Shown: positions 1-55,294 of the stretch, one piece after another
How positions within the stretch are numbered: the first letter of the stretch is position 1
Layout of the letters: every line of letters begins with the position of its first letter
The notes under the pieces: generated by a model
The model's input: only the letters and a program-made list of their open reading frames with translations
What the model was told of the DNA's origin: nothing
Database searches by the model: none
Position numbers and translations under genes: made by a program
DNA from: a virus
IMG/VR virus record: IMGVR_UViG_3300005689_000056
Location: 35,462 to 99,461 of that record
Reading direction: 5' to 3' (one strand)
Length of the DNA stretch: 64,000 nt

Positions 1-837
1 AAAGACCGGTGCCAATTGGCACCCAAGAATAGTATTAAAGAAAACCTAAAAACGAATAGTGATGATGGAGGACGTTTGGCTTCGCCGCACGTCGGGAGGG
101 TTCGTAGAGTAAGGCCAGCAACCACCCAGCAGGAAAATGCAATTGATTGCAAAAGCAAGATCCTGTCCATCGCACAGAAAGCCGCTGAGCGTTCCGCTAC
201 AAAGCAGTTGGAGAAAGTTCGGCGGGGCCGCGCCGCCGCGCCCGGGGCAATTACGCTTACCGATCTTAACGCTACGTGGAAGCGTTGTATGGTGCAGGCG
301 TTCGGTAAGTGCGCGGTGGGTGCTCTTACACATGTCGAGTACGGTGTATTCAAAAAGATCGTGAAGGCCCACGATATATCATTCCCGTGGGTTGAGTTCT
401 TTGAGTGGATCATTGGGTCTTGGTCCGCACTGAACGACGACCACAAGAGGCGTGTGGATTACGCGAGGAAGAAAGAGGGCGGGTGGCCCCCCACCGATGA
501 TGGTTCTTTCTACCTAGGTACCGAGACACCCATGCTGTCGTCGGTGGTTAAGAATCTGGTCAAGCTCTCACGCATCTACACAGACAACCGCAACCGCGCA
601 GTGTCACGCGTTACGTCGGATGCCGCCAAGTACATTGAAGAGGCGGAGCGTCAGCGAGTACGCGCGGAGAAGGCCGAGAAAGCACTGCAGAAAGTATCGT
701 CCTTGCGTAGCACCCGGAAAGATACCCCAGCACCCGCGCGGCGGCAGCGTAGCGCCGTGGCGACTATCGCTAGGCCGGAGGATGATGACTACTTCGCAAA
801 AGACGACCAGCTACCTGATTGGGAGGCTCAAGGATGA
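1..837 (+). CDS. Putative replication initiator-like protein, 5'-truncated
   Basis: Frame is open from base 1; lies directly upstream of loader-like and DnaB genes; function inferred from context only. Confidence 0.5.
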   Translation, partial: KDRCQLAPKNSIKENLKTNSDDGGRLASPHVGRVRRVRPATTQQENAIDCKSKILSIAQKAAERSATKQLEKVRRGRAAAPGAITLTDLNATWKRCMVQAFGKCAVGALTHVEYGVFKKIVKAHDISFPWVEFFEWIIGSWSALNDDHKRRVDYARKKEGGWPPTDDGSFYLGTETPMLSSVVKNLVKLSRIYTDNRNRAVSRVTSDAAKYIEEAERQRVRAEKAEKALQKVSSLRSTRKDTPAPARRQRSAVATIARPEDDDYFAKDDQLPDWEAQG

Positions 838-1427
838 ACAAGCACGAGATGTTGCGGGCAGGGATACCTGCAGACGCTATCGCCACTACGTTACCCAATG
901 CTGGGTTTCAAAACATACGTGATCGTATTCGCGATGGCTCTTTGCTGGTACCCGGTAGGGCTATCGTTGTCGCTCCAGCGGGTGTAACCAACACCGAGTC
1001 GGTAGGTCGTGCGGAGTTGGCTTTTTATCTGACGATGAAGGAGTTGATGCTAGCTAGCAAGGTTGATGGGGTGATCCTGTCTCTTGCCGAGCTAAACATG
1101 ATGATCCTTGAGGGTCGAGATACTGCCAACCATCGTGCGGTAGGTGACGGGCTGGAGATCTATGACCTAGGTACAGAGGATACGCTTTTGGGTGTCTCAG
1201 GATTCGTGGCTAACGGTGAGTCTTACATCGAGCCCCGGGTCCGGGAATTCCTCTCAGCCTTGCTACTGAAGTGGATGCGTAGAGGTAACCGCATTGTGTT
1301 CGGTTGTCATTGTTTTGCCTCACGCCTTGATAGTTGGTGGCCCCCGCACCTTGTGGCCTACATCGCACGTAACGGCGACACTTTCAATATCGGTAGCCTC
1401 AGCGATTCGGGGGCAGAGAATGAGTGA
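834..1427 (+). CDS. Possible degenerate DnaC-like helicase loader
   Basis: ATG overlaps the upstream stop; sits between initiator-like gene and DnaB; no intact Walker A. Confidence 0.4.
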   Translation: MNKHEMLRAGIPADAIATTLPNAGFQNIRDRIRDGSLLVPGRAIVVAPAGVTNTESVGRAELAFYLTMKELMLASKVDGVILSLAELNMMILEGRDTANHRAVGDGLEIYDLGTEDTLLGVSGFVANGESYIEPRVREFLSALLLKWMRRGNRIVFGCHCFASRLDSWWPPHLVAYIARNGDTFNIGSLSDSGAENE

Positions 1428-2676
1428 CGGGCTCAAGCTCATAGCCACCATTATCGATAACGGTAGCGTTCGTGCATTGAGGGAGATACCGTCGGAGCTA
1501 TTCGTGGAGGACGAGATACCGGTGTATCAGTTTATCCGGTCTCACTACCGACGGTACGGGGTACTGCCGGCGTACAGCACGGTAGAGGAGGAGTGTGACA
1601 TATCTATACCGGAACCAGAAGAAGGTATCGACTACTACCTGAAGAAGGTCAACGATAGGCGTATGTACAGCCTATTGCGCACGCAGTACTCTGAACTCCA
1701 GTCGTGTATGCGGGCTTACGATATGGATGCTGCGGCTGAGGTTATCGCAGGTATGCGCTCTACTACCCAGTCGCTTCGTATGGACGTGGATGTTATGGGG
1801 CTTGTAGAGGCGGCGTCCGCTGTGATGGATGAGTACGCTGTTGCGCACGAGAACCCCGGGCTTGCCGGCGTACCTACTTTGTGGCCGAGATACGATGAAT
1901 TGGTCGGGGGGTATCAGGGCGGTGACCTAGTCACCTACGTGGCTCGTCCCGGGGTTGGTAAGACGTACACGCTGCTAAGGCACGCACAGGCGGCTTACGC
2001 TACGGGTCATAGTATTCTGGTCGTATCTATGGAGATGACCATCACCCAGATGTCGCGCCGCTTCATGTCACTGGTCACAGGTATTGGCGCTGACTACATC
2101 CGACGAGGCCGTCTATCAACCTACGCAAGGCGCAGACTGCAGCAGTACGTTGATGACCTAGAGAGTACCGACAGGGCGCACTTTTTCACCGGGGGCGTTC
2201 GCAAGACCCCGTCTGACGTTGATATCCTCATACAGGAACTCAGGCCGGATATCTGCTACATCGACAGTATCTATCTCATGAACTCGGACAACAAGAAAGC
2301 CGTAACACGTCCGGACAAGGTGTCGGCAATCTTCGATGAGACGAAGCAGATTGCTGTCGCCCGCAAGTTGCCTATCGTCGCTACATCACAGTACAACCGG
2401 CTATCTGGAAAGAAAGGCAAAGACGGGTCACTTGAGACCATCGCGTATAGTGACGCCATCTCTACCCACAGTTCGGTAATACTATCGTTACAGGAAGGGT
2501 TGCCGGGTCGCGAGGCAGTCACGCGCCAAGGTACCCTGATTAAGGGTCGCGAGGGGGAGGCAGGTACTGTTTTCTACCACTACTCGTTTAGACCCGTAAA
2601 CATGGATGAGATGACGCCAGAAGAGATCGGGAATGAGACACAGGACGGTGAGCCCGATCTCGATTGGGTTGGTTGA
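1420..2676 (+). CDS. dnaB: DnaB-like replicative helicase
   Basis: ARPGVGKT Walker A, SMEM, YIDSIYLM, SQYNR, KGREG motifs. Confidence 0.92.
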   Translation: MSDGLKLIATIIDNGSVRALREIPSELFVEDEIPVYQFIRSHYRRYGVLPAYSTVEEECDISIPEPEEGIDYYLKKVNDRRMYSLLRTQYSELQSCMRAYDMDAAAEVIAGMRSTTQSLRMDVDVMGLVEAASAVMDEYAVAHENPGLAGVPTLWPRYDELVGGYQGGDLVTYVARPGVGKTYTLLRHAQAAYATGHSILVVSMEMTITQMSRRFMSLVTGIGADYIRRGRLSTYARRRLQQYVDDLESTDRAHFFTGGVRKTPSDVDILIQELRPDICYIDSIYLMNSDNKKAVTRPDKVSAIFDETKQIAVARKLPIVATSQYNRLSGKKGKDGSLETIAYSDAISTHSSVILSLQEGLPGREAVTRQGTLIKGREGEAGTVFYHYSFRPVNMDEMTPEEIGNETQDGEPDLDWVG

Positions 2677-2700: not shown

Positions 2701-2904
2701 ATGGACCGGTACGCGTATCTACTCAGCCTAGATGAGATCTTCTTCGTGAAGGAGCATCAGGATAGCCCGCAGGTTCAGGCACTCATTGCCACCTGCGAAA
2801 AGATTGTAGACCTTGAGGAGCAACTTGACGCGCTGCGCGATACGATGGCTGTGCAGAGTCAGGAAATGTTCCGGCGTAGAAGGAGAGTACGGCGTGACGT
2901 ATAG
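2701..2904 (+). CDS. Small hypothetical protein with Arg-rich C-terminus
   Basis: GGGG-like RBS; fills the gap between helicase and polymerase. Confidence 0.6.
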   Translation: MDRYAYLLSLDEIFFVKEHQDSPQVQALIATCEKIVDLEEQLDALRDTMAVQSQEMFRRRRRVRRDV

Positions 2905-5635: not shown

Positions 5636-6058
5636 ATGGCTATACGCGTTAGAAGGGTTCGCCGGGGTGGGGCCGACGTAAACCCACACAAAGATACGAT
5701 GGACCGGCTTTTGCAATCGATTGCAGAAAAGCAGGAGGAGGCTGCGCGTCTGACTTCTCTTGCTGCGGCGGAGCTAGTCCAGCTTAACGGCTTGATGGGC
5801 GACTTGAAGCTGGGTACCTACCAGTTCGAGAATATCTACGCCACCCGCGCTCAATCTACAGGTCGGGCCACGAACTTTATTGACCCTGCGGCATTCCGTA
5901 AGGAGTGTGCGAGTGATAAGGAATTCTACGGCGCGGTGACCGTATCCATTACCGAGGCTAAGGCCATCCTGCCGGGTAAGGTCTTGGAGAAGATCATTGA
6001 GACGAAGCCGGCCAAGCCCGGTCCTTACACTACCAAGGTTAGTCGCAAGGTGAAGTGA
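5636..6058 (+). CDS. Hypothetical protein with N-terminal RVRRVR
   Basis: Strong RBS and promoter; stop overlaps primase start. Confidence 0.8.
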   Translation: MAIRVRRVRRGGADVNPHKDTMDRLLQSIAEKQEEAARLTSLAAAELVQLNGLMGDLKLGTYQFENIYATRAQSTGRATNFIDPAAFRKECASDKEFYGAVTVSITEAKAILPGKVLEKIIETKPAKPGPYTTKVSRKVK

Positions 6059-7050: not shown

Positions 7051-7406
7051 CAGTTGTACCGTGCCTACCTAGTATTACGTCTGACGCCGACGAGGGTATA
7101 GATATAGCAGCTAGACTGCTTAGCCCTTTGCGTCAAGGTAAGGGAGTAACCCTGAGCGTTACGGATAAGAGATTGAGCAAGAAACGGCGGATTAAATCCG
7201 CCACACTGTTTCTTACACCGGGTTCCGCCTATGGCGGCAGTGATAGCGTGATCTTGGCTTCGATGCCGGGGTACGGCAGTGAATTGTTCGATATCTATAC
7301 CGTCAAGCCTATGGTCTTTTACCGTGTTGGTTTGAGTATGCGTCTTTCGCGGGCGCTGGTAGCAGCAATCACTGATGTTTTTCAAGGAGTAAATCATGGT
7401 TCGTAA
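7047..7406 (+). CDS. Hypothetical protein, start uncertain
   Basis: Open frame fills the primase-SSB gap; TTG 7047 overlaps the primase stop. Confidence 0.45.
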   Translation: MTVVPCLPSITSDADEGIDIAARLLSPLRQGKGVTLSVTDKRLSKKRRIKSATLFLTPGSAYGGSDSVILASMPGYGSELFDIYTVKPMVFYRVGLSMRLSRALVAAITDVFQGVNHGS

Positions 7407-8661
7407 GGCAGCAAGAACCTCTGCACATCGCGGTGCGGAAGGGCGTGCAAAAGCCGAGGCAGAGCGTGAACGCGCCGCAGCCCGCGCCGAGGCTCGCAAA
7501 AACCAAGGTAACATCCCGTTCCGGTTCCGCGTACCGGTGGGTGAGACGACACAGGCAATCATCTGCGATGAGGAGCCGTACTTTTTCCGGTTTGAGCACA
7601 ACCTGAAGAATCCGAAGACTGGCAAGTGGGATACATTCACCGGTTGCGTCGCGGAGTACGACAACTGCCCAGTGTGCGCCGCCACGGACAAGGAAGCGTA
7701 TTACGCGATGTACCTTACCGTGATTGACCTTACGCCGTTTGAGACCAAGAACGGTGACGAAGTCGAGTTCAGTCGCAAGTTGCTGGTCGTCAAGCCGGCG
7801 CAACAGAAAAAGTTTCTTCGCATGTATGCCAAGGCCGAGGCCAAGGGCAATACTCTGCGGGGGGCGCTGATCGAGTTTACCCGTGACTCTGACAAGGATG
7901 CGTCCATCGGTAACGAGATCGAACTACTCGAATACGTGGATGAGGAGGAGCTTGAGACCTACACTCGCTCGTGGAAGGACAAGGACGGTAAGCGTCACGA
8001 GGAGATCTGTCACGAAGTACTGGACTATGACGAGCTTTTCCCTGAACCCGACGTTGATCAACTTCGTGCGCTGGTAGGCGGCGAGCCGGTTCCCGGTAGC
8101 CGCGAGCATGAACGCTCAGCGCTTGGTCGTGGTAGCAGCCGTCGCACCTCGCGCCGCGATGAGGAAGCGGACGATGAGGAGGAAGAAGACGAAGGCAAGC
8201 ACGCTCGCGGTCGTATGCGGACAGGCGGTAAGGCTCCAGCCAAGGCAGCTACCAAGACCCGCCCCGCCGCGCGCCGCGCTCGTGAGGAGGAAGAGGAAGG
8301 GGACGATGAGGACGATGAGGAGGACGATGAGGCTGCACCCCCACGCCGTGGTCGTTCGTCTACCAAGACCCGCCCCGCCGCGCGCCGCGCTCGTGAGGAG
8401 GAAGAGGAGACCAAACCGTCCCGTCGTGGTCGCCCGGCGGCAAAGAAGGCTGACGATCCGCCATTCGACACCGACGACGATGAGGAGGAAGAGGAAGACG
8501 ACGAGGAGGAGGATACCAAGGCCTCCGCCAAGACCCGTCCCGCACCGCGTCGTGGTCGTTCGGTAGCGAAGAAAGACGACGAAGAGGAAGAAGAAGAGGA
8601 AGAAGAAGAGAAGGTTAATCGGCGCAACCCCCGTCGTGTATCCATGCGTCGCGGTCGGTAA
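7396..8661 (+). CDS. Putative single-stranded DNA-binding protein with long charged disordered tail
   Basis: AAGGAG RBS; H..C..CPVC zinc-like N-domain as in phage SSBs; alternating D/E and R/K blocks. Confidence 0.65.
   Translation: MVRKAARTSAHRGAEGRAKAEAERERAAARAEARKNQGNIPFRFRVPVGETTQAIICDEEPYFFRFEHNLKNPKTGKWDTFTGCVAEYDNCPVCAATDKEAYYAMYLTVIDLTPFETKNGDEVEFSRKLLVVKPAQQKKFLRMYAKAEAKGNTLRGALIEFTRDSDKDASIGNEIELLEYVDEEELETYTRSWKDKDGKRHEEICHEVLDYDELFPEPDVDQLRALVGGEPVPGSREHERSALGRGSSRRTSRRDEEADDEEEEDEGKHARGRMRTGGKAPAKAATKTRPAARRAREEEEEGDDEDDEEDDEAAPPRRGRSSTKTRPAARRAREEEEETKPSRRGRPAAKKADDPPFDTDDDEEEEEDDEEEDTKASAKTRPAPRRGRSVAKKDDEEEEEEEEEEKVNRRNPRRVSMRRGR
8249..8408 (+). repeat. 49-bp perfect direct repeat inside the SSB-like tail
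   Basis: 8249-8297 equals 8360-8408, encoding TKTRPAARRAREEEE twice. Confidence 0.9.
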
Positions 8662-10286: not shown

Positions 10287-10693
10287 CAGAACGTATCAAA
10301 CGTAGGCAGCGAGAGGCTTACCGGGATCAGCACCCAAAGCAGGATAGCGCTCTGCGTAATGGTCTCTTGTGTCGTGGGGTCAATCGAGAGGTCACGTATG
10401 GTGAGGAGGGCAGGCCACGCTACCTTGAGGTCTATACGGTACCGGAGGCGGCAGAGGCTATGGGTAGGTCGATGCTCGGGTTTAAGCGCTGGATAACCAA
10501 CGGCCTTATCCCGCCACCCATCCTGCAGGACACGGTTTTTCAGTACAAGCAGTATAGCTATGGGGAGCTTGAGGCTATCCGTAGTGAGATTGTCAGGCAC
10601 GAGCGGGAGTTTTCGTATTTTACTGCCAAGCATCAGGTGACAATTCACCGGGTGTGGCAGGCGGTGCAGGCTTACAGATCGCGACATATGTGA
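10148..10693 (+). CDS. MerR/excisionase-like HTH DNA-binding protein
   Basis: YTVPEAAEAMGRS..GFKRWITNGLIP pattern; start overlaps helicase end and is uncertain. Confidence 0.65.
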   Translation: MENRKGTASNRRRRSGTRSQTERSTPEKATDRNELRRQQYASDPALAERIKRRQREAYRDQHPKQDSALRNGLLCRGVNREVTYGEEGRPRYLEVYTVPEAAEAMGRSMLGFKRWITNGLIPPPILQDTVFQYKQYSYGELEAIRSEIVRHEREFSYFTAKHQVTIHRVWQAVQAYRSRHM

Positions 10694-10701
10694 GGTGAGT
10701 T

Positions 10702-11037
10702 ATGGATTCAGGGAGAGTAAGACGGGTGCGACCCAGCGGTGAGGGGGCTTCCGAGGAAACCGTAGAGGTGGTATCTACCTCGGTTACAGGGCAGGCATCG
10801 CCCACCGTAAAGCAACGTACGCTGAGTGTGCGCAAGTTTGTCACTCAGCCGGCGTACGTAGGGGTCTCTGCCGGGGTAACCAAAGAGACAGGGTCGTACG
10901 AGTTTCTGCGGGTAGACATCACCGTCAATATGCCGTGCTACGTAGAGGAAGTGGATCGCGTATCTCACGAGGTTGCAGAGTATGTTGCGCAGCGTCTTGA
11001 CGAAGAGATAACCGAGTATCTTGGCGGGGAGGAATAA
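10702..11037 (+). CDS. Hypothetical protein with N-terminal GRVRRVRP
   Basis: GAGGTG RBS; tight packing. Confidence 0.75.
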   Translation: MDSGRVRRVRPSGEGASEETVEVVSTSVTGQASPTVKQRTLSVRKFVTQPAYVGVSAGVTKETGSYEFLRVDITVNMPCYVEEVDRVSHEVAEYVAQRLDEEITEYLGGEE

Positions 11038-12536: not shown

Positions 12537-13415
12537 ATGACTACCAAATCCAGAGTAGTGCGCCGTAAAAAGGCTGACCCGGAAGGCGATTCACCCGTAG
12601 TGGTTTATGGGCAAGATGATACCCCGGTAATTGACTTGCTTCTTAGTGCTAAGCGCAAGCGTGACAAGTTTCGGAGAGGCGAGTACCTGCACGTATCCGA
12701 CGTGGTAGGTAAGTGCGTACGTAAGATAGCGCTGTCGGAGGCACACGGGATGCCTATGCCTACTGAGCCTATCACGCACTCGATGGCAATGACCTTTGCA
12801 CAGGGTAGTGCCTTGCACGACTACGTGAAGAGCGCACTTGTGCGACACCCCGACATGCCACTATGGGGGTCTTGGACTTGCAAGTGTGGAGCCAGTTTGG
12901 AGGAGCGTCGTTCTCATGCTGAGGTGGCTGATCTGCATTGCGAGGATTGTGGGGGGCCTCTCGATCAGTATGTAGAGATTGACATCAAGGATACGGAGTT
13001 ACTGGTTAGCGGTTCGCCTGACGTTATCCTGAAAGAACCGACCAAGAACTGCTACCACATTCTTGAAATCAAATCGATGTCTCATGAGGAGTGGAAGGGT
13101 CTCGTACGCGCCAAGCCTGACCATATTGTGCAGGTCGTCATGTACTGGTATCTCATGCGTCGGGCGGGGTTCCGTACCACCTCTACGGTCTCTGTACTAT
13201 ATGTCACCAAGGGTTTTGTGTTTAAAGGCCAGCCCTTCAAAGAGTTCGTTATTGATTGTGATACCGCGCTACGCCATATTGATGACTACATCGAGGACGC
13301 AAAGGCCTTCGCTCGTTTTCGCGAGACAGGCGAGCTACCGGTACGTACCAAGTGCGCAACGATAAATTGCCCAGAAGCTAAGAAGTGTCACGTAGCTATG
13401 GAGTGTTTCTCGTGA
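12537..13415 (+). CDS. Cas4-like PD-(D/E)XK exonuclease
   Basis: CVRK, G..LH, GSPD..LEIKS, QVVMY, C-terminal Cys cluster. Confidence 0.75.
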   Translation: MTTKSRVVRRKKADPEGDSPVVVYGQDDTPVIDLLLSAKRKRDKFRRGEYLHVSDVVGKCVRKIALSEAHGMPMPTEPITHSMAMTFAQGSALHDYVKSALVRHPDMPLWGSWTCKCGASLEERRSHAEVADLHCEDCGGPLDQYVEIDIKDTELLVSGSPDVILKEPTKNCYHILEIKSMSHEEWKGLVRAKPDHIVQVVMYWYLMRRAGFRTTSTVSVLYVTKGFVFKGQPFKEFVIDCDTALRHIDDYIEDAKAFARFRETGELPVRTKCATINCPEAKKCHVAMECFS

Positions 13416-15731: not shown

Positions 15732-15735
15732 GGAC

Positions 15736-16440
15736 ATGCCGGGAGCAAAGAAACACGTAAGGCGTGCACGCAGTCGCGTACGGGCTGCTACGTCTTTGGG
15801 GGTGCCTCGCGTAGAGATGCACTATCTGGACATTTCGTCTATCGTACCCTACGAGTTGAACCCGAGGGATAACGCTGCCGCTATCGAGTCTGTCGCTAAC
15901 TCCATCCGTAGTTTTGGGTTCCTTGTACCCGTAGTCGTGGACGCTAATAATGTACTTGTGGCGGGGCACACCCGGGTCGAGGCAGCTAAGACCCTAGGCC
16001 TTAATGAAGTACCTGCTATCAAGGCTGACAAACTCACCCCAGACCAGATTGACGCGTTCCGTATCATCGATAACAAGGTATCGGAACTCGCACGCTGGGA
16101 CTTCGACCTACTGTCGGTCGAGATCACCCGGCTTACCGGGTCGGGTATTGAGTTCGTTGGTTACGGCTTTACGCAGGAAGAGGTTGATTGTCTCTCGGAT
16201 GCTGTGGCCGACGATTGCCTCAATGTCGATAACCTCGTAGACCAAGAGGCCCGGGACCGCACACGACGCGCGGAACGGCGCGCACCAGCTACGGCACGGT
16301 TCGTGTTGGGGGAGTTGGTATTCTTCATCACAGCCACGGAGTACCGGAACTGGGTAAGCGGGGTACGAGAGCTTTGCGACTACGACGAGACCGCCATCAC
16401 CGCAGAGATCAAGCGGCGTCTCGGTATTTCACAGGGGTAA
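15736..16440 (+). CDS. ParB/Srx-domain protein
   Basis: YELNPRDN, SIRSFGFLVPVVVD, AGHTRVEAA, DNKVSE. Confidence 0.88.
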   Translation: MPGAKKHVRRARSRVRAATSLGVPRVEMHYLDISSIVPYELNPRDNAAAIESVANSIRSFGFLVPVVVDANNVLVAGHTRVEAAKTLGLNEVPAIKADKLTPDQIDAFRIIDNKVSELARWDFDLLSVEITRLTGSGIEFVGYGFTQEEVDCLSDAVADDCLNVDNLVDQEARDRTRRAERRAPATARFVLGELVFFITATEYRNWVSGVRELCDYDETAITAEIKRRLGISQG

Positions 16441-18704: not shown

Positions 18705-19454
18705 ATGGCTGACAGGGAAAATGGAGAGACTGTAGGTCGTCGCATCTCGCGTCGGCGTTCAGGCTTTGCGTTCTCGGGGGCTTCTGTCTCTGACTCCACG
18801 CAGCAGCAAGGCGGCAATATCAATGACGGTGTGGAGAGGATGGTCAATACCCCGCCATCGTCTTTACCGCCGCCTGAGCCACCACAGACAATCGCGGGGA
18901 CGCCGTCTGAGGACTTCAACCCGCAGGGGCGTCTGGCGCAGGTGCGCCGCCGTTCTACCACCTACGAACGAGAGTACCGGCTGAATCTACTACACCGCCT
19001 CATGATGCGTGGGGTACCGCTCGATGAGATAGCAAACCAGCTTGGTATCTCTGTGTCTCAGGTATATCGTGATCGTGACGAGTTGAAGGAGCGCCATCGC
19101 GCATCGTCTCGCAGTCTGGATATCGACGAGATCATCGGAGACAGCAAGGGGTATTACGAGGAAGCTGGTGCTATGGCTATGCGCGCCGCCTCCAAGAACG
19201 ACCTACCCTACGCAATGCGTCTTGCGGCTGTACGTACAGCGTTAGCCGCCAAGAATGACATGCACCGTTTCTTCCAGACAGCAGGTGTCTATGACGTGTT
19301 GCGTTTTCGCAAGGCGCAGGACGGTAACGGTACGTCCGATGTTCGTCGCCTCATGGAGAATACTGAGCGCCTTCTGTCCGGCGGTCTGGGTGACCTCAGC
19401 GGTGCGGTCAACGACGCTATCGATTCTGGCGATCAGGAGAATCTTGACCTATGA
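18705..19454 (+). CDS. Terminase small subunit (putative)
   Basis: HTH LDEIANQLGISVSQVYRD; stop overlaps TerL start. Confidence 0.7.
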   Translation: MADRENGETVGRRISRRRSGFAFSGASVSDSTQQQGGNINDGVERMVNTPPSSLPPPEPPQTIAGTPSEDFNPQGRLAQVRRRSTTYEREYRLNLLHRLMMRGVPLDEIANQLGISVSQVYRDRDELKERHRASSRSLDIDEIIGDSKGYYEEAGAMAMRAASKNDLPYAMRLAAVRTALAAKNDMHRFFQTAGVYDVLRFRKAQDGNGTSDVRRLMENTERLLSGGLGDLSGAVNDAIDSGDQENLDL

Positions 19455-22336
19455 CTGCCACACACACCCGCCGCGTAGGGAGACGACGGACCCCGGGTGC
19501 CGCGCCGGGGGTTAGCGAGCAGGCTCGCGCCATGGTTCAAGGGGCGTGGGAGGAGGCTGAACGTTGCGAGAATAAGCTGTTCGGTGAGATGTACGCCACC
19601 GCGTTAGAGCGCAAGGTGTATTACAACGATACGGTGCTATTCGACTTCATGAAGCACCTCACGCACGCTCCGGTAGGCATAGAAGAGTTTCTGTCGGGGT
19701 CGGAGTTTCTGGGGGCTACTGACATATCGTTGTGGCCCGAAGTACGCGCAGCCATCGTTGATATTAACAAGTACTGGTGGAAAGGTCAGGTAGGAGGGGC
19801 CAAGCATGAGGCTCTTCTGATGGGCTCGTGTGTAGACGCGCTAACCGAGTTTTTAACCCCGAACGGCTGGAAGTATATTTCCGATTTTGAGGAAGGTGAT
19901 CTTGTCGGTCAATACTCGGTAGACGGTACTCTAGAGTTTGTGACACCGCAGGCGTACATCCGCCGCCGCCACCGAATGTTTTACCACTTCGCACCTCGGG
20001 GCGGTCTGGATATGATGTTAACTCCGGGGCATCGCGTTATCTACCGGAACAGGAACACCGGGGAAATCTGCGAGATGTCCGCAGAGGACGTGGCCGAGAA
20101 CCACAATAGAACTGCTACCGGGTTCACAGGTAAGTTCCTATCTACCTTTACCCCTACGGGGCGGGTAGGGATTGATCTATCCGACGAACAGATCCGTGTG
20201 ATGGTTATGGTTCATGCCGATGGCTCCTTTGATACAAGGGATGACTCCAGTTGGTGTAATGTGATCGTAAAAAAGCCGCGGAAAATTCGCAGGGCTAGGC
20301 GTATCCTTCAGGAGGCGGGTATTGCGTTTACTGAAGTACCGCACAACGGAGACTACCGCCGCATCCGTTTTTACGCGCCGCAACGGAACAAGACATACGA
20401 GGGTTGGTGGGGTTGCACACAGGACCAGCTCCGTATTGTTACCGACGAGGTAATGCACTGGGATGGCTCCGCGAGGCACCAACAGTTCTACACTGCGAAG
20501 AAAGAGGAAGCTGATTTCATCCAGTACGCCTATCTCGCTACAGGGGTACGGGCTACCATGCAGTGGCAAGATCGCGGGGGAAATCGGTCTGTCGAGTATA
20601 GGGTGAAGCGTTGTCGTTCCGCTGAATACACCATGTCCGCTTCGCCTAAAGGGCCTGAAGCACAGCTTGTTGAAGCCAGTGATGGGTATTGCTACTGCTT
20701 CACACTGCCTACGGGTATGTGGTTGGCGAGGCGCAACGGTAGTGTATACGTCACCGGGAACACAGGTAGCGGAAAAACGGAAATATCGAAGATTACCCAG
20801 CTATACCACCTTTACCTGTTGTCCTGCTTGGACAACCCGCAAGGCTACTACGGCCTGCCGAAAGCGACCTCTATTGTGTTCGCTATCATGGCCGCTAAGC
20901 CGCACGTGACGAAGAAGGTTATCTACGACCCTCTGCGCCACATGATTGAGCACATCCCGTATTTTCAGAAGCACCTACGACCGAGCAAGCTGGTTGAGTC
21001 CGAGATGATCTTTGAGGAGAAGAACATCCGTGTAGTGCCTGCGGGTGTGGACGCCGACTCGATCCTAGGTGAAGCAGTACTTTCGGGGATCATTGACGAA
21101 ATCAACTTCATGAACGTTGTGCTACGTTCTAAGAAGGCAGAGGTAACCACAGGCCGCGCTGGGGTCTACGATCAGGCCCAGACAATACACAGTGCAATGA
21201 CCCGCCGTATCAAGGGTCGTTTCACCAAGCCCGGACCCAAGATAGGGATACTCTGTACGTCATCGTCAACCCGCTATAAAGGGGACTTTACCGACAAGCG
21301 TAAGGCTCAGGCTCTGCAGCACGACGAGCAAGGTATCTACATCTACGATAGGCCGCAATACGAGGTAAAACCTCAAGAAAATTTCTGTGGGCAAAAGTTT
21401 AGGCTGCTTGTCGGTAACGACATGATCAACGATGTGCGTATCCTGAAGGACGGGGACGCCGTACCGCCAGAGGCTCGCGTTCTAGACATCCCCATCGAGT
21501 ATGAGACGGAGTTCCAGAGAGACCCGCATTCCGCCCTACGAGACATCTGCGGTATATCCACCTCGGCTATTTCCCCCTTCATTACCCGTCGTTTCAAGAT
21601 CTACGAGGCTGTGTCTGCCGGGGAGGAGGAAGGTATCCAGTCGTTCCTCAACAAGGACAACGTTATTCTAGGTGTGGATGGGATGCCGGTCGTGAAGTAC
21701 AGCCATTACTGTACCGACCCCTCACGTCCGCGCTATGTGCACGTTGACTTGTCGAAGACCGGGGACAGTTGTGGTATCGCCATGCTGAGATACGATGGCC
21801 TCACCTCCGTTACACGCAGTAATGGGGCTATCGAGAAGCTACCTATCGCTACCATTGAGATGGCGTGCTCAATACAGCCTGACTCCAATAATGAAATAGA
21901 TTTTGCGGAGGTTCGTACATGGATACGGCAGCTACGTGATGTATACGGGTACCCGATCAGGGCGGTAACATACGACGGTATCTTTAGTATCGAGTCCGTA
22001 CAGCAGTGGCGCAAGATAGGTATGCGCACTGGTAATATTTCGGTAGACAGAACGTCCGCACCGTACAAAAACCTGCGTGACGCCTATAACGATAACCGCA
22101 TACGGCAGTACCATCAGGAGGTACTGATCCGCGAGCTTTTTGATTTGGAGTACGATGACGATAAGGACAAAGTCGATCACCCGGTGAATGGCAGTAAGGA
22201 TGTGGCGGATGCAGTGGCCGGCGCCTACTACTCGATGCTGACCAAGCGCAGTACTTGGGTGTCCGAGTCAGGTAACGAGGTAATAGGTAATGGCCGTGCG
22301 GAATTTGGTGAACGTTTCGAGGGGAGTAGGCGATGA
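19451..22336 (+). CDS. Terminase large subunit, intein-containing
   Basis: Walker A GS/TGSGKT split by an insertion, IIDEINF Walker B, HVDLS..DSCG and KDVADA nuclease motifs. Confidence 0.92.
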   Translation: MTATHTRRVGRRRTPGAAPGVSEQARAMVQGAWEEAERCENKLFGEMYATALERKVYYNDTVLFDFMKHLTHAPVGIEEFLSGSEFLGATDISLWPEVRAAIVDINKYWWKGQVGGAKHEALLMGSCVDALTEFLTPNGWKYISDFEEGDLVGQYSVDGTLEFVTPQAYIRRRHRMFYHFAPRGGLDMMLTPGHRVIYRNRNTGEICEMSAEDVAENHNRTATGFTGKFLSTFTPTGRVGIDLSDEQIRVMVMVHADGSFDTRDDSSWCNVIVKKPRKIRRARRILQEAGIAFTEVPHNGDYRRIRFYAPQRNKTYEGWWGCTQDQLRIVTDEVMHWDGSARHQQFYTAKKEEADFIQYAYLATGVRATMQWQDRGGNRSVEYRVKRCRSAEYTMSASPKGPEAQLVEASDGYCYCFTLPTGMWLARRNGSVYVTGNTGSGKTEISKITQLYHLYLLSCLDNPQGYYGLPKATSIVFAIMAAKPHVTKKVIYDPLRHMIEHIPYFQKHLRPSKLVESEMIFEEKNIRVVPAGVDADSILGEAVLSGIIDEINFMNVVLRSKKAEVTTGRAGVYDQAQTIHSAMTRRIKGRFTKPGPKIGILCTSSSTRYKGDFTDKRKAQALQHDEQGIYIYDRPQYEVKPQENFCGQKFRLLVGNDMINDVRILKDGDAVPPEARVLDIPIEYETEFQRDPHSALRDICGISTSAISPFITRRFKIYEAVSAGEEEGIQSFLNKDNVILGVDGMPVVKYSHYCTDPSRPRYVHVDLSKTGDSCGIAMLRYDGLTSVTRSNGAIEKLPIATIEMACSIQPDSNNEIDFAEVRTWIRQLRDVYGYPIRAVTYDGIFSIESVQQWRKIGMRTGNISVDRTSAPYKNLRDAYNDNRIRQYHQEVLIRELFDLEYDDDKDKVDHPVNGSKDVADAVAGAYYSMLTKRSTWVSESGNEVIGNGRAEFGERFEGSRR
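19829..20761 (+). mobile_element. Intein (311 aa) with LAGLIDADG-like endonuclease region
   Basis: Begins CVDALTEFLTPNGW, has TPGH block B, HADGS and HWDGS motifs, ends RRNGSVYVTGN before Thr. Confidence 0.9.
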
Positions 22337-26403: not shown

Positions 26404-26732
26404 GACCTGAGCCTGCGAAGTTTACGAAAGACAACCCGTGCACGAAAAAACACATATGGAACTGCTTCGCCGGGCCGCAGGGGTTGCGACCAGTAAGTGT
26501 AGTAGCCGCACAGGCACAGATAGGCGTGTATGTACCACGGGTGATGGAGCGAAATGCTCGCCTAGTATGTAAGACTGTCAAAGGTACTGACTACTACGAG
26601 CTTACGCCGGAGGGTGAAGAGTGGCTTACGGCAGGTATCCGTAGCTACCTGAAGAACCACCCCTCGGAGGCCGGGGAGGTGACGTACCCGCCAGATACCT
26701 TACCTGCTAGAGTAAGACGAGTACGCCGCTGA
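26400..26732 (+). CDS. Winged-helix-like protein with C-terminal RVRRVRR
   Basis: YYELTPEGEEWL wing motif. Confidence 0.6.
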   Translation: MRPEPAKFTKDNPCTKKHIWNCFAGPQGLRPVSVVAAQAQIGVYVPRVMERNARLVCKTVKGTDYYELTPEGEEWLTAGIRSYLKNHPSEAGEVTYPPDTLPARVRRVRR

Positions 26733-43704: not shown

Positions 43705-43733
43705 TTGAAGGTATATACAATTCTTGGTATAAT
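43705..43733 (+). promoter_or_regulatory. Sigma70-type promoter with extended -10
   Basis: TTGAAG-17 bp-TATAAT with TGn; TATATACAATTC box in the spacer. Confidence 0.7.
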
Positions 43734-43796
43734 GGCCGTAATAGGTATTGGGTTGATTTTGCAATCGATTGCAGTTTCTTGCGAGTCGGGGGAGGT

Positions 43797-45335: not shown

Positions 45336-45668
45336 GTGCAGATCGTGACAGCCCGGGTACAGAGAACACGGACGGTTGAATGGCGCGTGCATTGGGTTGA
45401 TTCCGGGCAGGACCGCGTCTGTTATATAGGTAGATGGCAGGTAGGGCGGGTAGTTCGCCGGGTGGCGCATAGAAGGGTTACCTACGTAGCGCACTTCTCA
45501 GTGCCCGGCATCCACGGACCTGTAGCGACTGAGCAGGATCAGCAGGTAGCAGCCATGAAGTTGATGGCGAAAGTCAAAGAATGGTTAGGAGGCTTGAGTG
45601 ACGATCCGCCGAGTATTGAGGACGAGAAAGAAAGAGCCAGAACCCGCCGAGTCCGCGCCGCCAAGTAG
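45336..45668 (+). CDS. Hypothetical protein
   Basis: Packed ORF. Confidence 0.5.
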   Translation: MQIVTARVQRTRTVEWRVHWVDSGQDRVCYIGRWQVGRVVRRVAHRRVTYVAHFSVPGIHGPVATEQDQQVAAMKLMAKVKEWLGGLSDDPPSIEDEKERARTRRVRAAK

Positions 45669-46005
45669 TGCCGCGAGCGTAGGCCGGGTGCGTCGGGTTC
45701 GGTCGGGGGCTAGAGAGGTAAAACCCCGATATGTCGTGGATTGGGAGGCGTCTTGGGGGGCTAAGTTGCAGCTATATCTCATGACTTCCTTCCTGTACTA
45801 CCAGATGAATAGGAGCGTGATAACCAACGACGACTACGACAGGTTGTGTAAGGAGTTACTGGCTGGGTGGCGTACCGGCAAGCACCAACACAAGCACTTG
45901 GTGACTGCCGACGATCTACGCGCTGTCACGGGGTATGCTATTGAATACCCTCGCATGGTTATAGGCGGGGCGATGACGCTGTTGGATAGACATCAGGAGG
46001 TATGA
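45598..46005 (+). CDS. Stand-alone NAD-dependent ligase domain Ia-like protein
   Basis: AGGAGG RBS; YYQMNRSVITNDDYDRLCKEL resembles the LigA Ia motif. Confidence 0.6.
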   Translation: MTIRRVLRTRKKEPEPAESAPPSSAASVGRVRRVRSGAREVKPRYVVDWEASWGAKLQLYLMTSFLYYQMNRSVITNDDYDRLCKELLAGWRTGKHQHKHLVTADDLRAVTGYAIEYPRMVIGGAMTLLDRHQEV

Positions 46006-48360: not shown

Positions 48361-48743
48361 AACCCGTCCGCAGTAAAGAGCCGACCAGATGCGGCATCAG
48401 ACGGGCGAAGTCACCGCAAGAGCACCCGTTACTTGCTGGGGTAGTATGGGTCACGGCGCCGGGAGGCCGCAAGGCGGCTTATATCAGGTTCTCTGAGGAT
48501 CTTGTTGATGAGGTAGGTAACGCCTTACCGTACGGGGTATCTGCAGAGCACCCGGCATTTTTGAAATTGGTGCAGTATCCGTCTCGTGGGGTCTGGAGAC
48601 TCTACGCGATGTATCTAGATAGAAGTAGGTCCGCGTTCCTTTGGGAATACAACGAACAGCCATCTTGGCTTCTTAGTGGAGGTAGCGCAAATGCACGGAA
48701 GAGTTCGAAGGGTGAGGCCAGCAGCCCCGGTGGAGGAAGTTGA
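48357..48743 (+). CDS. Hypothetical protein
   Basis: ATGA coupling. Confidence 0.55.
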   Translation: MKPVRSKEPTRCGIRRAKSPQEHPLLAGVVWVTAPGGRKAAYIRFSEDLVDEVGNALPYGVSAEHPAFLKLVQYPSRGVWRLYAMYLDRSRSAFLWEYNEQPSWLLSGGSANARKSSKGEASSPGGGS

Positions 48744-49008
48744 AGAGGATGTAGTAGAGGAGTCACTACCTGAAGAAGAGGAAGACGAGGACGAACAGGC
48801 AGAGCCGGGCAGTGATGCGGACAAGGATCGTATCGAGAACAAGTACCGCGATAGGGCGGTTACCCCACTCAAAGCGATTCGAGGGTTCTGTGTACTTTGT
48901 ATGGGGTGCCAGCCAAAACTCGTAGCCTCGTGTACGGCAACCAAGTGCATCCTCTACCCTTACCGTTTCGGTAAGAACCCGTATCAGCGTCGCGGCCCCC
49001 GCGATTGA
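48691..49008 (+). CDS. Acidic zinc-finger-like protein with N-terminal GRVRRVRP
   Basis: GGAGGT RBS; PLKAIRGFCVLCMG..C..C.LYPYRFG. Confidence 0.7.
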   Translation: MHGRVRRVRPAAPVEEVEEDVVEESLPEEEEDEDEQAEPGSDADKDRIENKYRDRAVTPLKAIRGFCVLCMGCQPKLVASCTATKCILYPYRFGKNPYQRRGPRD

Positions 49009-51750: not shown

Positions 51751-53339
51751 GTACACATACCAAACACATCAAGCGCGTGCGTCGCAGTGGTGATGAAGGC
51801 AACGTTACTGCACGTGTCCGTCGCATCCGTATCGGTGTAAACCGCGCCGACCGCACACGCCAGAAAAGTAAAGATGACGGCCTGCTGCTGTCTGGCGGAG
51901 ACTACCCGCTTACGCCTCCGTACGAGATATCAAGACTGTCTCAGCTTATCGAGACCAGTAACATGCTCAAGCAGTGCGTCGCGGCGATGGTAACGAACGT
52001 GGGTCTTTGCGGGTGGGAGGTGGTACCTGCACATCCGGATATCCCGATGGACCCGAACGAGAAAGAGGAGCTTGAGTCGTTCGTGGAAAGCCCGAACTCT
52101 GAAGAGAGTCTGACAACCATCCACGCCAAGATCGTCAACGACAAAGAATCTCTCGGCTTTGGGTTCCTTGAGGTGATCAGAGACACGCAGCGTCGTGTAT
52201 CTATCCTTCGTCATGCCCCCGCAGAGACGACGCGCTTGTGCCCGAAGGACACCGAAGAGGTACTTGTCGAGTACGACGTGGCGCGCGGGCCTCGTGTTTC
52301 GATGGTCCGGGAGGTTCGCACTTTCCGCAAATACGTTCAGGTCGTAGGTGGTACCTATACCTACTTCAAGGAGTTCGGTGACCCCCGCAAGATGGACTAT
52401 CGCACAGGTCGGTTTGCCAAGCGCGGGTCGCCTGTGGCGCCCGAGTACGAAGCTACCGAGCTTATCCATTACCGCCACCTGTCCCCTGACGCGTACGGCG
52501 TACCGCGATGGACGAACCAGATCCCGGCTATCCTAGGCTCTCGCGAGGCTGAAGAGGTCAACCTGCGGTATTTCGAGGACAATACGGTACCGCCCATGCT
52601 GCTATCCGTGGCGGGTGGCCGTCTTACTGCAGAGTCCTTCCGGTCACTGAAGCGTCTGATCGAAGGCCGGGGTGTGGGTAAAGAGCGACAGAACCAGATT
52701 CTACTTATCGAGGCTATCCCTGAACAGGAAAACCTTGACAGCAAGGGTACTGTGTCATTGCAGGTAGATAAACTGACGGACGCCAGACCCTCAGATGCGC
52801 TATTCAGTGCGTACGATGAGGCGAATCAGGCCAAGATTCGGTCTTCTTTCCGTCTCCCCCCGGTCGCTGTAGGGCTCTCGCAGGACGTGACATTTGCTAC
52901 AGCCAACGTATCCACCTTCGTAGCAGAGTCGCAGGTGTATGCCCCTGAGCGGAAGGACTACGACGAAAAATACAACAAGATGATCGTCAATAACCGTAAT
53001 GGGCTCAACCTCAAGACTGTCAAGCTGAAGAGCAAGAACCCGTCGATCACTAACCCTGAGATTCTTCTGAAGGCACTCACTGCCCTGAACGTAATGGGTG
53101 GCTTGACTCCGCGATCAGCACAGATTGCTGCAACCGCAGCGCTCAACACGGATATCGAACGGTACCCCGAGCCGGGAGAGGAAGGCTACGAAGAGTGGAT
53201 GGACAAACCTATCGCCCTCACATTGCGCAATACCACGGCCAATACGCACAATGAGCAGTCGGTGAAAGATGACGAGGTGAAGAAGATCGAGGACGATGGT
53301 GACGTGGGCGCTATACAGCCTGAGCACGGGTCGGAGTAA
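51747..53339 (+). CDS. Portal protein (PBSX XkdE-like)
   Basis: GFGFLEVIRD, YGVPRW, N.RYFEDNTVP, IRSSFRLPP; first gene of the head module. Confidence 0.88.
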   Translation: MSTHTKHIKRVRRSGDEGNVTARVRRIRIGVNRADRTRQKSKDDGLLLSGGDYPLTPPYEISRLSQLIETSNMLKQCVAAMVTNVGLCGWEVVPAHPDIPMDPNEKEELESFVESPNSEESLTTIHAKIVNDKESLGFGFLEVIRDTQRRVSILRHAPAETTRLCPKDTEEVLVEYDVARGPRVSMVREVRTFRKYVQVVGGTYTYFKEFGDPRKMDYRTGRFAKRGSPVAPEYEATELIHYRHLSPDAYGVPRWTNQIPAILGSREAEEVNLRYFEDNTVPPMLLSVAGGRLTAESFRSLKRLIEGRGVGKERQNQILLIEAIPEQENLDSKGTVSLQVDKLTDARPSDALFSAYDEANQAKIRSSFRLPPVAVGLSQDVTFATANVSTFVAESQVYAPERKDYDEKYNKMIVNNRNGLNLKTVKLKSKNPSITNPEILLKALTALNVMGGLTPRSAQIAATAALNTDIERYPEPGEEGYEEWMDKPIALTLRNTTANTHNEQSVKDDEVKKIEDDGDVGAIQPEHGSE

Positions 53340-53938: not shown

Positions 53939-53941
53939 AGC

Positions 53942-55294
53942 ATGAGTACCGAAAAGAAACGCAACGTCAACGTACTGACCATGGATACTCCGAAATCACT
54001 TACGTTGACGAAGCACCCAGCCAATCAGATTGGTTTTCGCGTGGTCCGCAGCGATACCGGGGAAGAGACGATTGCCCGCCGCGTTCGCCGCGCCCGTTCC
54101 GACCAGAAAACCTCCTTCCTCTATATCGAGTTCCCCGCCGGCACCGCGCCTGAAGATGCCGCCAAAGAGGCCGAAGCGTTTGGCGTCAAGGGTTACGAGG
54201 TGATCGCCGAGGACGACCGCGTTATCGTGCGCCGTAGTGACTACGTTCTCAGCGATGCGCCGACCGTTTCGGTCAACATCGGCGGTGGGCGCAAGGTCGT
54301 TATGCTGCGTTCGGATATCAATGCCGACCCGGCACCAGACAGCGGTTTGCAATTGATTGCACTCAGCTTCGATAAGAGTGTGTATCGCTCCGACGACGAG
54401 GTTTCTCAGTACCTCCAAGACAAAGGTATTGACACGTCAGCCGGCGCCGTCGAGAATACCGACACGCACTACATTTTCCGGCGCAGTGATGTGAAAGCGG
54501 AAGGTACTGCCGGGAAGATCGAGGTTGATTCTGGTGTAACGGTTTCTGTGGTTCGCGCCGACATCATGGATGTCCCCGAACCTCTTCTGGTGGTGGTGAA
54601 CGAGGCGGCATACGGTAGCTGGGGTTGGGGGCAGTTGGACTTCAGTGCAGCCATGGCCGATGTTGAGTTCTCTCGGATGTCGGACGAGGCAATCTACCGC
54701 CTTCGTGACGTACTGGAAAACATTCTCTTCTACAACCGTCTTCCGGTAGCTGCGCGTAAGGAGCTTATCGCTCGCGCTACCAGTCAATTTTCCAGCTTCA
54801 TCGGTAGCCTGCTTGATGGGTTGCCGGAAGGTGTGGTTTTAGCGAGTCGTTCTGACAATCAAAAGGAGTCACAGATGAGTACCAAGAAAACTGAAGGCGA
54901 GGCCCAGACGATCACCCGCGCCGATGTCGAAACCATCGTTGCCGAGTCGTTGTCCAAGGCACTGCCGGATGCGCTGACGAAAGCGCTGGAAGGCGCGAAC
55001 ATCACCCGTTCGGAACCCACCCCCGAGCCCACCCCGGAAGATCCCGTTTTGAAGTCGCTGGAGAACATCACCCGCTCCCTCGGTGAACTCTCTACCTCGG
55101 TTACCGCCGTCAGCGACCGTGTTGGCAAGATCGAATCGACTACCGTTGTCCGCTCCGATTCGCCGGATGACGAAGATGACGACGATGACGATGCTGAGGG
55201 TGACGACAACGAAGCCACCAACAAGACCCGGAACAAGACCGCCAAGCGTACCGATGTGTTTGCCGGCATCTTCAGCCGCAATCTGCGCGCCTGA
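53942..55294 (+). CDS. Scaffold or protease-associated head protein
   Basis: Between protease and capsid; acidic and helical C-terminus. Confidence 0.7.
   Translation: MSTEKKRNVNVLTMDTPKSLTLTKHPANQIGFRVVRSDTGEETIARRVRRARSDQKTSFLYIEFPAGTAPEDAAKEAEAFGVKGYEVIAEDDRVIVRRSDYVLSDAPTVSVNIGGGRKVVMLRSDINADPAPDSGLQLIALSFDKSVYRSDDEVSQYLQDKGIDTSAGAVENTDTHYIFRRSDVKAEGTAGKIEVDSGVTVSVVRADIMDVPEPLLVVVNEAAYGSWGWGQLDFSAAMADVEFSRMSDEAIYRLRDVLENILFYNRLPVAARKELIARATSQFSSFIGSLLDGLPEGVVLASRSDNQKESQMSTKKTEGEAQTITRADVETIVAESLSKALPDALTKALEGANITRSEPTPEPTPEDPVLKSLENITRSLGELSTSVTAVSDRVGKIESTTVVRSDSPDDEDDDDDDAEGDDNEATNKTRNKTAKRTDVFAGIFSRNLRA

Follow-up and report, generated by a model that had tools for sequence, protein, structure and literature searches.

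The phage studied here carries, on about one protein in eight, a short arginine-rich peptide which, as far as sequences can tell, is real and is maintained by selection at the protein level. By the same comparisons, a short linear motif, Arg-[Val/Ile]-Arg-Arg-x-Arg, marks protein termini across the clade, and the hexapeptide RVRRVR is its local form in this phage. Most likely, this tag tethers its carriers to DNA or to one shared partner. Eukaryotic viruses are well known to organise entire proteomes through short linear motifs, for which, to our knowledge, phages offer hardly any examples. The genome is that of a complete phage (~99.3-kb), and all coordinates refer to a window of 64,000 nucleotides (positions 35,462 to 99,461 of IMG/VR record IMGVR_UViG_3300005689_000056).

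An ORF scan located the six exact RVRRVR copies listed in the preliminary description, 6/6 in + strand frames and 0 in - strand frames (Table 1). This number compares with 0.03–0.08 expected from per-ORF or global composition, and with a mean of 0.056 and a maximum of 2 in 2000 shuffles within 20-residue blocks; Arg/Val composition therefore cannot account for so many copies. Of the 13 alternative orderings of four Arg and two Val, only the overlapping VRRVRR was found. No other 6-mer is as widely shared among the + strand ORFs as RVRRVR; the 8-mer made of G, RVRRVR and P occurs 3 times. As had been claimed, Pro follows the tag in 3/6 exact copies, and the likeness lies in the protein: the copies use different codons wherever synonymous ones exist, which rules out an origin as a DNA repeat. 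Three exact copies sit 2–4 codons past a Shine-Dalgarno site and ATG (starts 5636, 10702 and 48685). The small protein bearing the copy at 45685 has it near residue 30, and the alignment of its orthologues runs through the tag.

The wider motif R-[V/I]-R-R-x-R, or a close variant, was found in ~16 proteins, more than had been described, and counts of the motif in this genome reach 7 for 0.22 expected. The tag nearly always lies within the first 30 or the last 20 residues or in a disordered linker, which sharpens the initial observation that copies sit at termini and linkers of unrelated proteins. The variants reported in the scaffold-like (54080), ParB-like, Cas4-like and TerL proteins are present, as are those of ORFs 2701 and 45336, both C-terminal; the portal has a second copy in addition to that at 51813. 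The variant of ORF 28918 also exists, but it is internal and weak. Position 2 is nearly always Val or Ile, and Arg is strongly favoured over Lys. Tags are sometimes tandem, with spacers of ~10–15 residues, and Pro/Gly and acidic spacers are often adjacent.

Table 1. Positions of the arginine-rich tags in the 64,000-nucleotide window
Position	Strand	Tag and carrier	Evidence
97..114	+	Exact RVRRVR, interdomain linker of 464-aa initiator-like protein	sequence
214..231	+	Weaker second copy K-V-R-R-G-R, same initiator-like linker	sequence
2872..2895	+	C-terminal Arg run ending R-V-R-R, 67-73 aa ORF 2683/2701-2904 between DnaB and PolA	
5645..5662	+	Exact RVRRVR, residues 4-9 of 140-aa protein 5636-6058, between PolA and primase	
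8632..8658	+	Arg-rich C-terminal tail after poly-Glu run, 421-aa protein 7396-8661	
10714..10731	+	Exact RVRRVR, residues 5-10 of 111-aa protein 10702-11037, between SF2 helicase and RecA	
12552..12572	+	N-terminal variant R-V-V-R-R-K-K, Cas4-like exonuclease	
15754..15783	+	N-terminal double variant, ParB-like protein 15736-16440	
18738..18758	+	N-terminal Arg cluster, HTH / TerS-like protein upstream of TerL	
19469..19489	+	N-terminal variant, residues 7-13 of PhoH-TerL fusion protein	
26709..26729	+	Exact RVRRVR plus one Arg, last seven residues of 110-120 aa protein (ends 26732)	
45639..45656	+	C-terminal variant, ORF 45336-45668 (gene status uncertain)	
45607..45633	+	First, degenerate tag, N-terminus of ligase-like Ia-domain protein 45598-46005	
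45685..45702	+	Exact RVRRVR, second tag of ligase-like Ia-domain protein	
48700..48717	+	Exact RVRRVR, residues 4-9 of 107-aa protein 48685-49008	
51774..51830	+	Two tags, R-V-R-R and R-V-R-R-I-R, portal N-terminal tail (51774, 51813)	
54077..54097	+	Basic cluster R-R-V-R-R-A-R, disordered N-arm of scaffold-like protein, abutting R-S-D	

The carriers are mostly DNA proteins (initiator-like, Cas4-like, ParB-like, TerS-like, TerL, portal and the ligase-like Ia domain), and small proteins of the replication and recombination modules are also tagged. The initiator-like ORF begins before the window and stops at 837, immediately ahead of DnaB. The 140-aa carrier has an orthologue in the Pseudomonas phage PA_L9 which also starts with M-A-I and bears a related N-terminal tag; its ESM Atlas matches are solely uncharacterised phage families (DUF7173, Gp157-like). 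A homologue search with the 111-aa carrier returned itself and one distant tagless relative. The 107-aa carrier combines an acidic linker with a Cys-rich C-terminal domain. No tag was noted on proteins downstream of the major capsid protein (MCP), and for the ~35 kb outside the window no copies were counted, though the tail of an ATPase there, described below, is listed as tag-bearing. No close relative was found of the 534-aa ORF 43656-45260 in the phage collection, of PolA and primase among the viral contigs searched, or of the portal in a profile search of GTDB genomes.

Conservation in relatives, proposed as a check in the preliminary description, extends across the whole phage clade. The portal N-terminal consensus in 31 orthologues is RIRRxR, and the portal N-tail and the scaffold-like N-arm are tagged in nearly all relatives. 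Metagenomic relatives hold 29 copies for 1.1 expected, 26/29 of them terminal (first 30 or last 20 residues), and PA_L9 holds 5 for 0.23 expected. Between the window and PA_L9, orthologues that are 30–45% identical retain the tag, at times on the opposite terminus, and degenerate forms are tolerated. The ligase-like Ia protein, for instance, is tagged at the N-terminus here, has one C-terminal tag in PA_L9 and three tags in the relative L001. The tag of PAL9_03, the PA_L9 orthologue of the 26709 carrier, is terminal there too, and the PA_L9 gene positioned like ORF 45336-45668 likewise ends with a tag. Additional carriers in PA_L9 are PolA, RuvC and a peptidoglycan-hydrolase-like protein. Copies within a genome (the six exact ones here, those of L001 and those of Aeromonas phage HJ05) are more alike than copies from different genomes: x is mostly Thr in L001, where synonymous codons again differ, and in HJ05 an aliphatic residue comes after an Arg run. 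In contrast, Stenotrophomonas phage DLP_5, about as closely related as PA_L9, has zero tags despite similar G+C and Arg contents and the same kinds of DNA enzymes. Together with the shuffles, this tagless genome rules out a composition artefact. As the clade includes cultured Pseudomonas phages (Samunavirus, e.g., PA_L9 and SM1), the tag is directly testable with peptides, GFP fusions and tail deletions. The open-access literature on the hexapeptide yielded no phage-related title, and the tag did not surface in papers that mention Samunavirus or PaMx31.

These comparisons bear on the idea that the tags share no function and are merely ribosome-binding sites read in frame, or generally basic termini. 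Some C-terminal copies in relatives are indeed encoded by the next gene's GTAAGGAGG-like Shine-Dalgarno sequences (all three in L049, one in L041 and two in PA_L9). However, 0/6 exact copies here overlap a usable ribosome-binding site, N-terminal copies cannot serve their own gene, and the 25–100 fold enrichment over shuffles, the conservation at 30–45% identity and the tagless DLP_5 all argue against this reading, which is very improbable.

We favour, with somewhat less than even confidence, a low-specificity tether to DNA or another polyanion, of the "molecular sled" type. As a portable element binding most likely DNA, the tag would raise the local concentration of its carriers on replicating or packaging DNA, and it may permit one-dimensional sliding, as with the short basic sled peptides. 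Built around a KRRR core, such peptides bind DNA and slide along it, an activity robust to sequence variation (PMC4797294). Like adenovirus pVIc and other sleds, the tag is a short, portable, Arg-rich terminal peptide that tolerates variation and lies on proteins that must find DNA targets, and the adenovirus sled is likewise linked to a maturation protease and its substrates (PMC4797294). Sleds combine a flexible terminus with three or more Arg/Lys close together; in each tag, four of six residues are Arg. In contrast to the sleds, the core here is Arg-[Val/Ile]-Arg-Arg-x-Arg and not KRRR, and the tag is spread over ~16 proteins of one phage. AT-hook and SPKK-type minor-groove motifs are accessory DNA anchors on unrelated proteins, and the tags resemble them in being short, Arg-rich, Gly/Pro-flanked and often tandem with spacers. 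However, the R-G-R-P core of the AT-hook (PF02178 type) is absent, with Val/Ile in place of Gly, and Pfam reported no AT-hook on the carriers.

Enrichment, placement, conservation in orthologues, the DNA-protein carriers and disorder count for the tether (the pLDDT of the scaffold-like tag region is under 50), and independence of terminus, tandem copies, degenerate forms and acidic runs are typical of non-specific polyanion tethers. Counting against it, (i) Val/Ile at position 2 and the preference for Arg over Lys are tighter than pure electrostatics needs, (ii) the genome-specific form of the tag suggests co-evolution with a reader, (iii) the scaffold-like protein and the PA_L9 peptidoglycan-hydrolase-like carrier are not obvious DNA binders, and (iv) DLP_5 has the same kinds of DNA enzymes, all tagless. 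The preliminary description had proposed an addressing motif, acting through a hub protein, a compartment, a protease or modification. A selected terminal peptide is retained from this proposal; a generic DNA tether fits at least as well as the mechanisms named, since the carriers are dominated by DNA-handling enzymes, TerS-like and TerL included. Such a tether would give phages a cheap, portable means of making many enzymes more processive and locally more concentrated.

The main rival, which we consider possible but doubtful, is that the tag docks on one reader or hub encoded by the phage and so directs many proteins to a shared machine or factory. The fixed spacing of the motif and its beta-branched residue at position 2 fit this reading, as does a tag form that is uniform per genome and variable between lineages, and terminal, disordered positions are those read by AAA+ unfoldases and hub proteins. 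A candidate reader is a Cdc48-like tandem AAA+ ATPase module encoded outside the window, directly upstream of the replication genes. This 558-aa protein has an AAA domain, its best solved matches are VAT/Cdc48/p97 (E 5e-63), and its model (pLDDT 87) compares with the Cdc48 D1-D2 pair at a TM of about 0.65. Its C-terminal tail (pLDDT under 50) and that of the next gene are both tagged, and most of the 86 listed homologues of the ATPase have an Arg-rich C-terminal tail. Among phages examined in full, those with terminal Arg-cluster enrichment (this phage, PA_L9 and HJ05) encode full-length homologues, whereas the unenriched DLP_5 has a match of only ~150 residues. However, RcDurkin and Catdawg have the ATPase and no enrichment of terminal Arg clusters, and the contrast involves very few, non-independent genomes. 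Matches in Rhizobium L338C include many ORFs with Leu-codon starts or on the - strand, apparently spurious. The tagged ATPase tail does not dock on the model, and a tagged ATPase fits one more DNA-tethered protein equally well.

A precedent for the docking reading is found in the Arg-rich linear motifs VBM and VIM, which occur on many unrelated proteins and bind p97 (PMC5389986). These motifs are helical, bind the p97 N domain and follow the consensus E-h-R-R-R-R-L-x-h-h or R-x2-h3-A-A-x2-R-h (PMC5389986), from which the tag consensus differs. As a p97-type N domain is missing from the ATPase model (D1 is matched by residues 20-260, within a full-length D1-D2 match), the VBM mechanism cannot apply as such, and N-domain docking is ruled out. 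In a fuller version of the docking reading, which we judge rather unlikely, the tag would be a true address label: a phage reader, possibly the ATPase module with the ancestral tail form, would recognise the ~16 proteins and bring those of replication, recombination, packaging and early head assembly together in a single factory on the phage DNA, reader and tag co-evolving in each lineage. A dedicated reader would represent a new addressing system and give a handle on an unstudied phage Cdc48-like ATPase module.

The portal and scaffold-like tags stand apart by their position relative to a candidate cleavage site, R-[S/A]-D. The scaffold-like protein has 10 copies of this tripeptide for 0.59 expected, and the portal, the protease and the MCP have one each close to the N-terminus; the portal tags lie upstream of a conserved R-A-D at 51843-51851. 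The tripeptide may be a maturation site, and because these two tags are upstream of it or on it, they would be removed after head assembly. A portal tag cut before packaging could not act on packaged DNA, which counts against the tether. The same arrangement, with both tags kept in nearly all relatives, could instead indicate a head-loading signal, with which carriers enter the prohead before the maturation protease removes the tag. The capsid targeting sequence of T4 is such a precedent, a short peptide common to unrelated phage proteins (PMC3012670), and five or six tagged small proteins cluster directly upstream of the portal gene. However, the T4 signal is strictly N-terminal, not basic, always followed by a protease site and carried by head-internal proteins (PMC3012670), whereas many tags here are C-terminal, the small carriers have no downstream R-[S/A]-D, and TerL, the TerS-like, initiator-like, Cas4-like and ParB-like proteins and the PolA and RuvC of PA_L9 are unexpected in capsids. 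The literature on this phage group yielded no virion proteomics. We regard head loading as improbable.

A protease recognition site or a terminal degron has a similarly low probability. The tags contain the furin/kexin pattern R-x-[K/R]-R, they are terminal, and Ser, Ala or Thr and then an acidic residue often come next, resembling the candidate site R-[S/A]-D. However, the protease tag proposed in the preliminary description is made unlikely by Pro at +1 in three exact copies and by several copies being the last residues of their protein. In addition, essential enzymes, TerL and PolA among them, have kept the tag, most R-[S/A]-D sites in the scaffold-like protein have no Arg pattern upstream, and the sole phage protease found is of the XkdF type. 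A complex prediction with the MCP, this protease and portal residues 1-60 as partner, each chain with its own alignment, gave no answer (score 0.00), which speaks neither for nor against binding. A poly-Asp stretch of the scaffold-like protein was dropped as a tag receptor because it is not conserved in orthologues. Tat signal peptides (S/T-R-R-x-F-L-K and a hydrophobic h-region) are ruled out, as Pro/Ser/Gly and an acidic or polar stretch follow the tags.

A further parallel is the R-K-R at the N-terminus of the phi29 connector, a basic motif in the first residues of a portal that is needed to bind a nucleic acid, the pRNA (PMC12084888). The phage differs from phi29 in that the tag is on many non-portal proteins, the portal family is PF04860, and Rfam found no family match, and thus no pRNA-like RNA, in the window, which also has no tRNAs. 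Folding of the 291 nt at 25435-25725 is only marginally stronger than that of shuffles (z -1.6).

All six exact copies of RVRRVR announced in the preliminary description were found at their positions, each in a reading frame of the + strand. Composition predicts 0.03–0.08 copies, and none of 2000 shuffles within 20-residue blocks gave more than two. Apart from the overlapping VRRVRR, these six residues occur in no other order in the ORFs of the window, and RVRRVR is the most widely shared 6-mer among the + strand ORFs. The remaining ~35 kb of the genome showed no copy, and none was found on proteins encoded downstream of the capsid gene. As the preliminary description had proposed, the similarity is at the protein level and does not reflect a DNA repeat: the codons for Arg and Val all differ from copy to copy, and the conserved object is therefore the peptide. 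Three of the six copies lie 2–4 codons downstream of a Shine-Dalgarno site and ATG, one forms the C-terminal end of its protein, one aligns with the tags of orthologues, and one lies in the linker joining the winged-helix-like N-terminal and the C-terminal domains of a 464-aa protein upstream of DnaB. When variants are counted, about 16 window proteins have a terminal copy of the motif or of a close variant, and two further carriers, a Cdc48-like ATPase and its neighbour, are encoded just upstream of the window. In the major capsid protein (MCP), the sole resemblance is a weak internal Arg-Arg-Val-Arg stretch, which its relatives do not keep. The residues next to the tags are Gly, Pro, Ser and Thr, and acidic runs follow several of them. 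Residues 1–55 of the scaffold-like protein, tag included, have pLDDT values below 50 in an AlphaFold model (27-sequence alignment), as does the C-terminal tail of the ATPase in its own model. One small carrier consists of an N-terminal tag, a very acidic linker of ~40 residues and a Cys-rich C-terminal domain, an architecture kept by gene 40 of the cultured Pseudomonas phage PA_L9.

Positions of the features discussed (window coordinates unless another record is named)
Feature	Position	Remark
Exact RVRRVR copies	97, 5645, 10714, 26709, 45685, 48700	+ strand
Small acidic-linker carrier	48685-49008
Cdc48-like ATPase gene	genome 31054-32730	558 aa
ATPase module	genome 31054-34623	L074:6055-9624; just upstream of the window
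Shine-Dalgarno-encoded Val-Arg-Arg	L049:2566, 7019, 8892	all three copies of this locus
Shine-Dalgarno-encoded Val-Arg-Arg	L041:3023
Shine-Dalgarno-encoded Val-Arg-Arg	PA_L9 16853, 38283
Portal R-[S/A]-D	51843-51851	residue 33, single
Protease R-[S/A]-D	53378-53386	residue 12, single
MCP R-[S/A]-D	55354-55362	residue 11, single
Scaffold-like R-[S/A]-D sites	53942-55294	ten sites
Family A DNA polymerase	2813-5590
Large terminase fusion	19451-22336	961 aa; PhoH-like region, residues 125-452
Gaps in replication module	7051-7395, 10287-10701, 15418-15735, 43368-43655	290-420 nt
TAAG/CAAG-rich region	25435-25725	non-coding
16-bp palindrome and near copies	137-152, 5705-5720	examples
One-mismatch palindrome	25903-25918
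Off-frame repeat	8078-8566	within gene 7396-8661

Portal searches yielded 13 viral and 50 metagenomic loci. With crude gene calls, R-[V/I]-R-R-x-[R/K] occurred 29 times in these relatives compared to 1.1 times after shuffling, and 26 of the 29 copies were terminal (first 30 or last 20 residues); these terminal stretches account for 26% of all residues. The N-termini of 31 portal orthologues have the consensus R-I-R-R-x-R, with R-A-D-T-S-R-Q ~16 residues further on. The closest viral relative (portal identity 62%) carries five copies, in which position 5 is Thr or Ser: three are N-terminal in the orthologue of the ligase-like Ia-domain protein and two lie at a C-terminus; their codons differ, as in the window. 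PA_L9 has 5 copies (0.23 expected), and the Stenotrophomonas phage DLP_5 has none. Orthologue pairs of the window phage and PA_L9 that are 30–45% identical retain the tag. It is C-terminal in both members of one pair (the 110–120 aa protein ending at 26732 and PAL9_03) and N-terminal in both members of another (the 140-aa protein after PolA and PAL9_83); in the ligase-like Ia protein it is N-terminal in the window phage and C-terminal in PA_L9. PolA of PA_L9 has two C-terminal copies, and the RuvC-like resolvase of that phage has one at its N-terminus. Retention at such identity, together with the free exchange of terminus, is strong evidence from sequence comparison that the tag has a function, and the exchange argues against any role that would require one particular end. 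The proposal of a short linear addressing motif is partly supported: the motif is real and functional, and its reader is putative.

In some relatives the next gene overlaps, and its Shine-Dalgarno sequence (GTAAGGAGG-like) doubles as the coding sequence of a C-terminal copy, because GTA-AGG-AGG reads Val-Arg-Arg. Judged from these sequences, a ribosome-binding site can thus give rise to the tag or resemble it. No exact copy in the window is accounted for by such an origin.

The ATPase upstream of the window has one AAA domain, and among solved structures it is closest to VAT, Cdc48 and p97 (E 5e-63). Its confident model (pLDDT 87) aligns over the full length with the D1-D2 pair of Cdc48/p97 (TM about 0.65); the first domain (D1) is degenerate, and a p97-type N domain is absent. 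The p97 VBM analogy does not hold, as the ATPase is without the N domain. A conserved set follows it, comprising a 214-aa protein, a DUF1257 protein and two small proteins; the Aeromonas, Rhizobium and Rhodobacter phages that were examined share the gene order, and in PA_L9 the ATPase precedes a similar set of genes. Many ATPase homologues contain inteins. Among the matches listed, the C-terminal tail is Arg-rich in most of 86 homologues, a common form being Arg-Arg-Val-Ser-Thr-Arg-Arg-Arg. The ATPase is a tag carrier and may also be a reader of the tag, the product of the next gene has a C-terminal tag too, and the module may carry the oldest form of the tail. Proteins with four Arg in six residues at a terminus were counted and compared to shuffled sequences: 12 vs 2.4 in the window phage, 17 vs 2.8 in PA_L9 and 15 vs 1.1 in Aeromonas phage HJ05. 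There were none in DLP_5, in which only an ATPase fragment was matched, and counts were 5 vs 4.7 in RcDurkin and 6 vs 6.0 in Catdawg, both of which have the ATPase.

Most carriers of recognisable function act on DNA: in the window, the initiator-like, Cas4-like, ParB-like and TerS-like proteins, TerL, the portal and the ligase-like Ia-domain protein; in PA_L9, PolA and RuvC. Because of this list, we rank first, while putting it somewhat short of an even chance, the reading that the tag is a putative tether to DNA or another polyanion, a tail that would aid any enzyme searching DNA. Weak binding to DNA and sliding along it are known for short basic peptides with a KRRR core, and the property is robust to changes in sequence (PMC4797294). 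However, position 2 of the tag is near-invariantly Val or Ile, Arg is favoured over Lys, copies are more alike within one genome than between genomes, the scaffold-like protein is among the carriers, and DLP_5 has similar enzymes without tags, all of which speak against a tether. No occurrence of the motif in a phage context was found in the literature searched.

The head proteins share a second motif, R-[S/A]-D. It occurs 10 times in the scaffold-like protein compared to 0.59 expected (none of 5000 shuffles exceeded four), mostly behind two hydrophobic residues and at conserved alignment positions; Arg11 and Asp13 are invariant in the MCP alignment, and the motif is kept in relatives. From these sequences, R-[S/A]-D is a likely candidate for the cleavage motif of the XkdF-type maturation protease. 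As the portal tags lie upstream of R-[S/A]-D and the scaffold-like tag abuts one, these tags would be lost at maturation. Tags sitting where maturation would remove them are consistent with a T4-like head-loading role, which is possible for head proteins only: it gives no account of the copies on TerL, the TerS-like protein and replication enzymes.

The window covers bases 35462-99461 of a 99,461-bp virus record. The record ends overlap by ~199 bp, and the phage genome is therefore complete and circularly assembled. Among cultured phages, members of the genus Samunavirus, Pseudomonas phages of ~93 kb, are closest (MCP identity 51%); Aeromonas, Vibrio, Stenotrophomonas, Rhodobacter and Agrobacterium phages follow at about 45–48%. 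Almost all window genes lie on the + strand. Besides many small ORFs, they comprise genes for replication and recombination (DnaB, PolA fused to a UDG domain, primase, SF2 helicase, RecA, resolvases and a Cas4-like exonuclease), a cluster of ParB-like, ParB-methyltransferase and CmoA-like genes, genes for an HTH protein (TerS-like) and for a PhoH-TerL fusion, and a head block (portal (PF04860), XkdF-type protease, 450-aa scaffold-like protein and MCP). The uracil-DNA-glycosylase-superfamily domain is at the N-terminus of the family A polymerase, and the PhoH-like ATPase region of the large terminase is N-terminal to the terminase domains. Several gaps in the replication module lack a convincing ORF. 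The TAAG/CAAG-rich region has no Rfam match, and its folding as RNA barely exceeds that of shuffled sequences (z -1.6). The 16-bp palindrome TTGCAATCGATTGCAA and its near copies occur many times across the window and surface as recurrent pentapeptides in all six reading frames; PA_L9 has a similar inverted repeat, GTGCAA-N4-TTGCAC, often right behind stop codons. An ORF in an alternative frame contains two copies of a ~16-residue repeat ending in Val-Arg-Arg-Lys-Arg, because the acidic C-terminal region of a 421-aa gene contains a direct DNA repeat.
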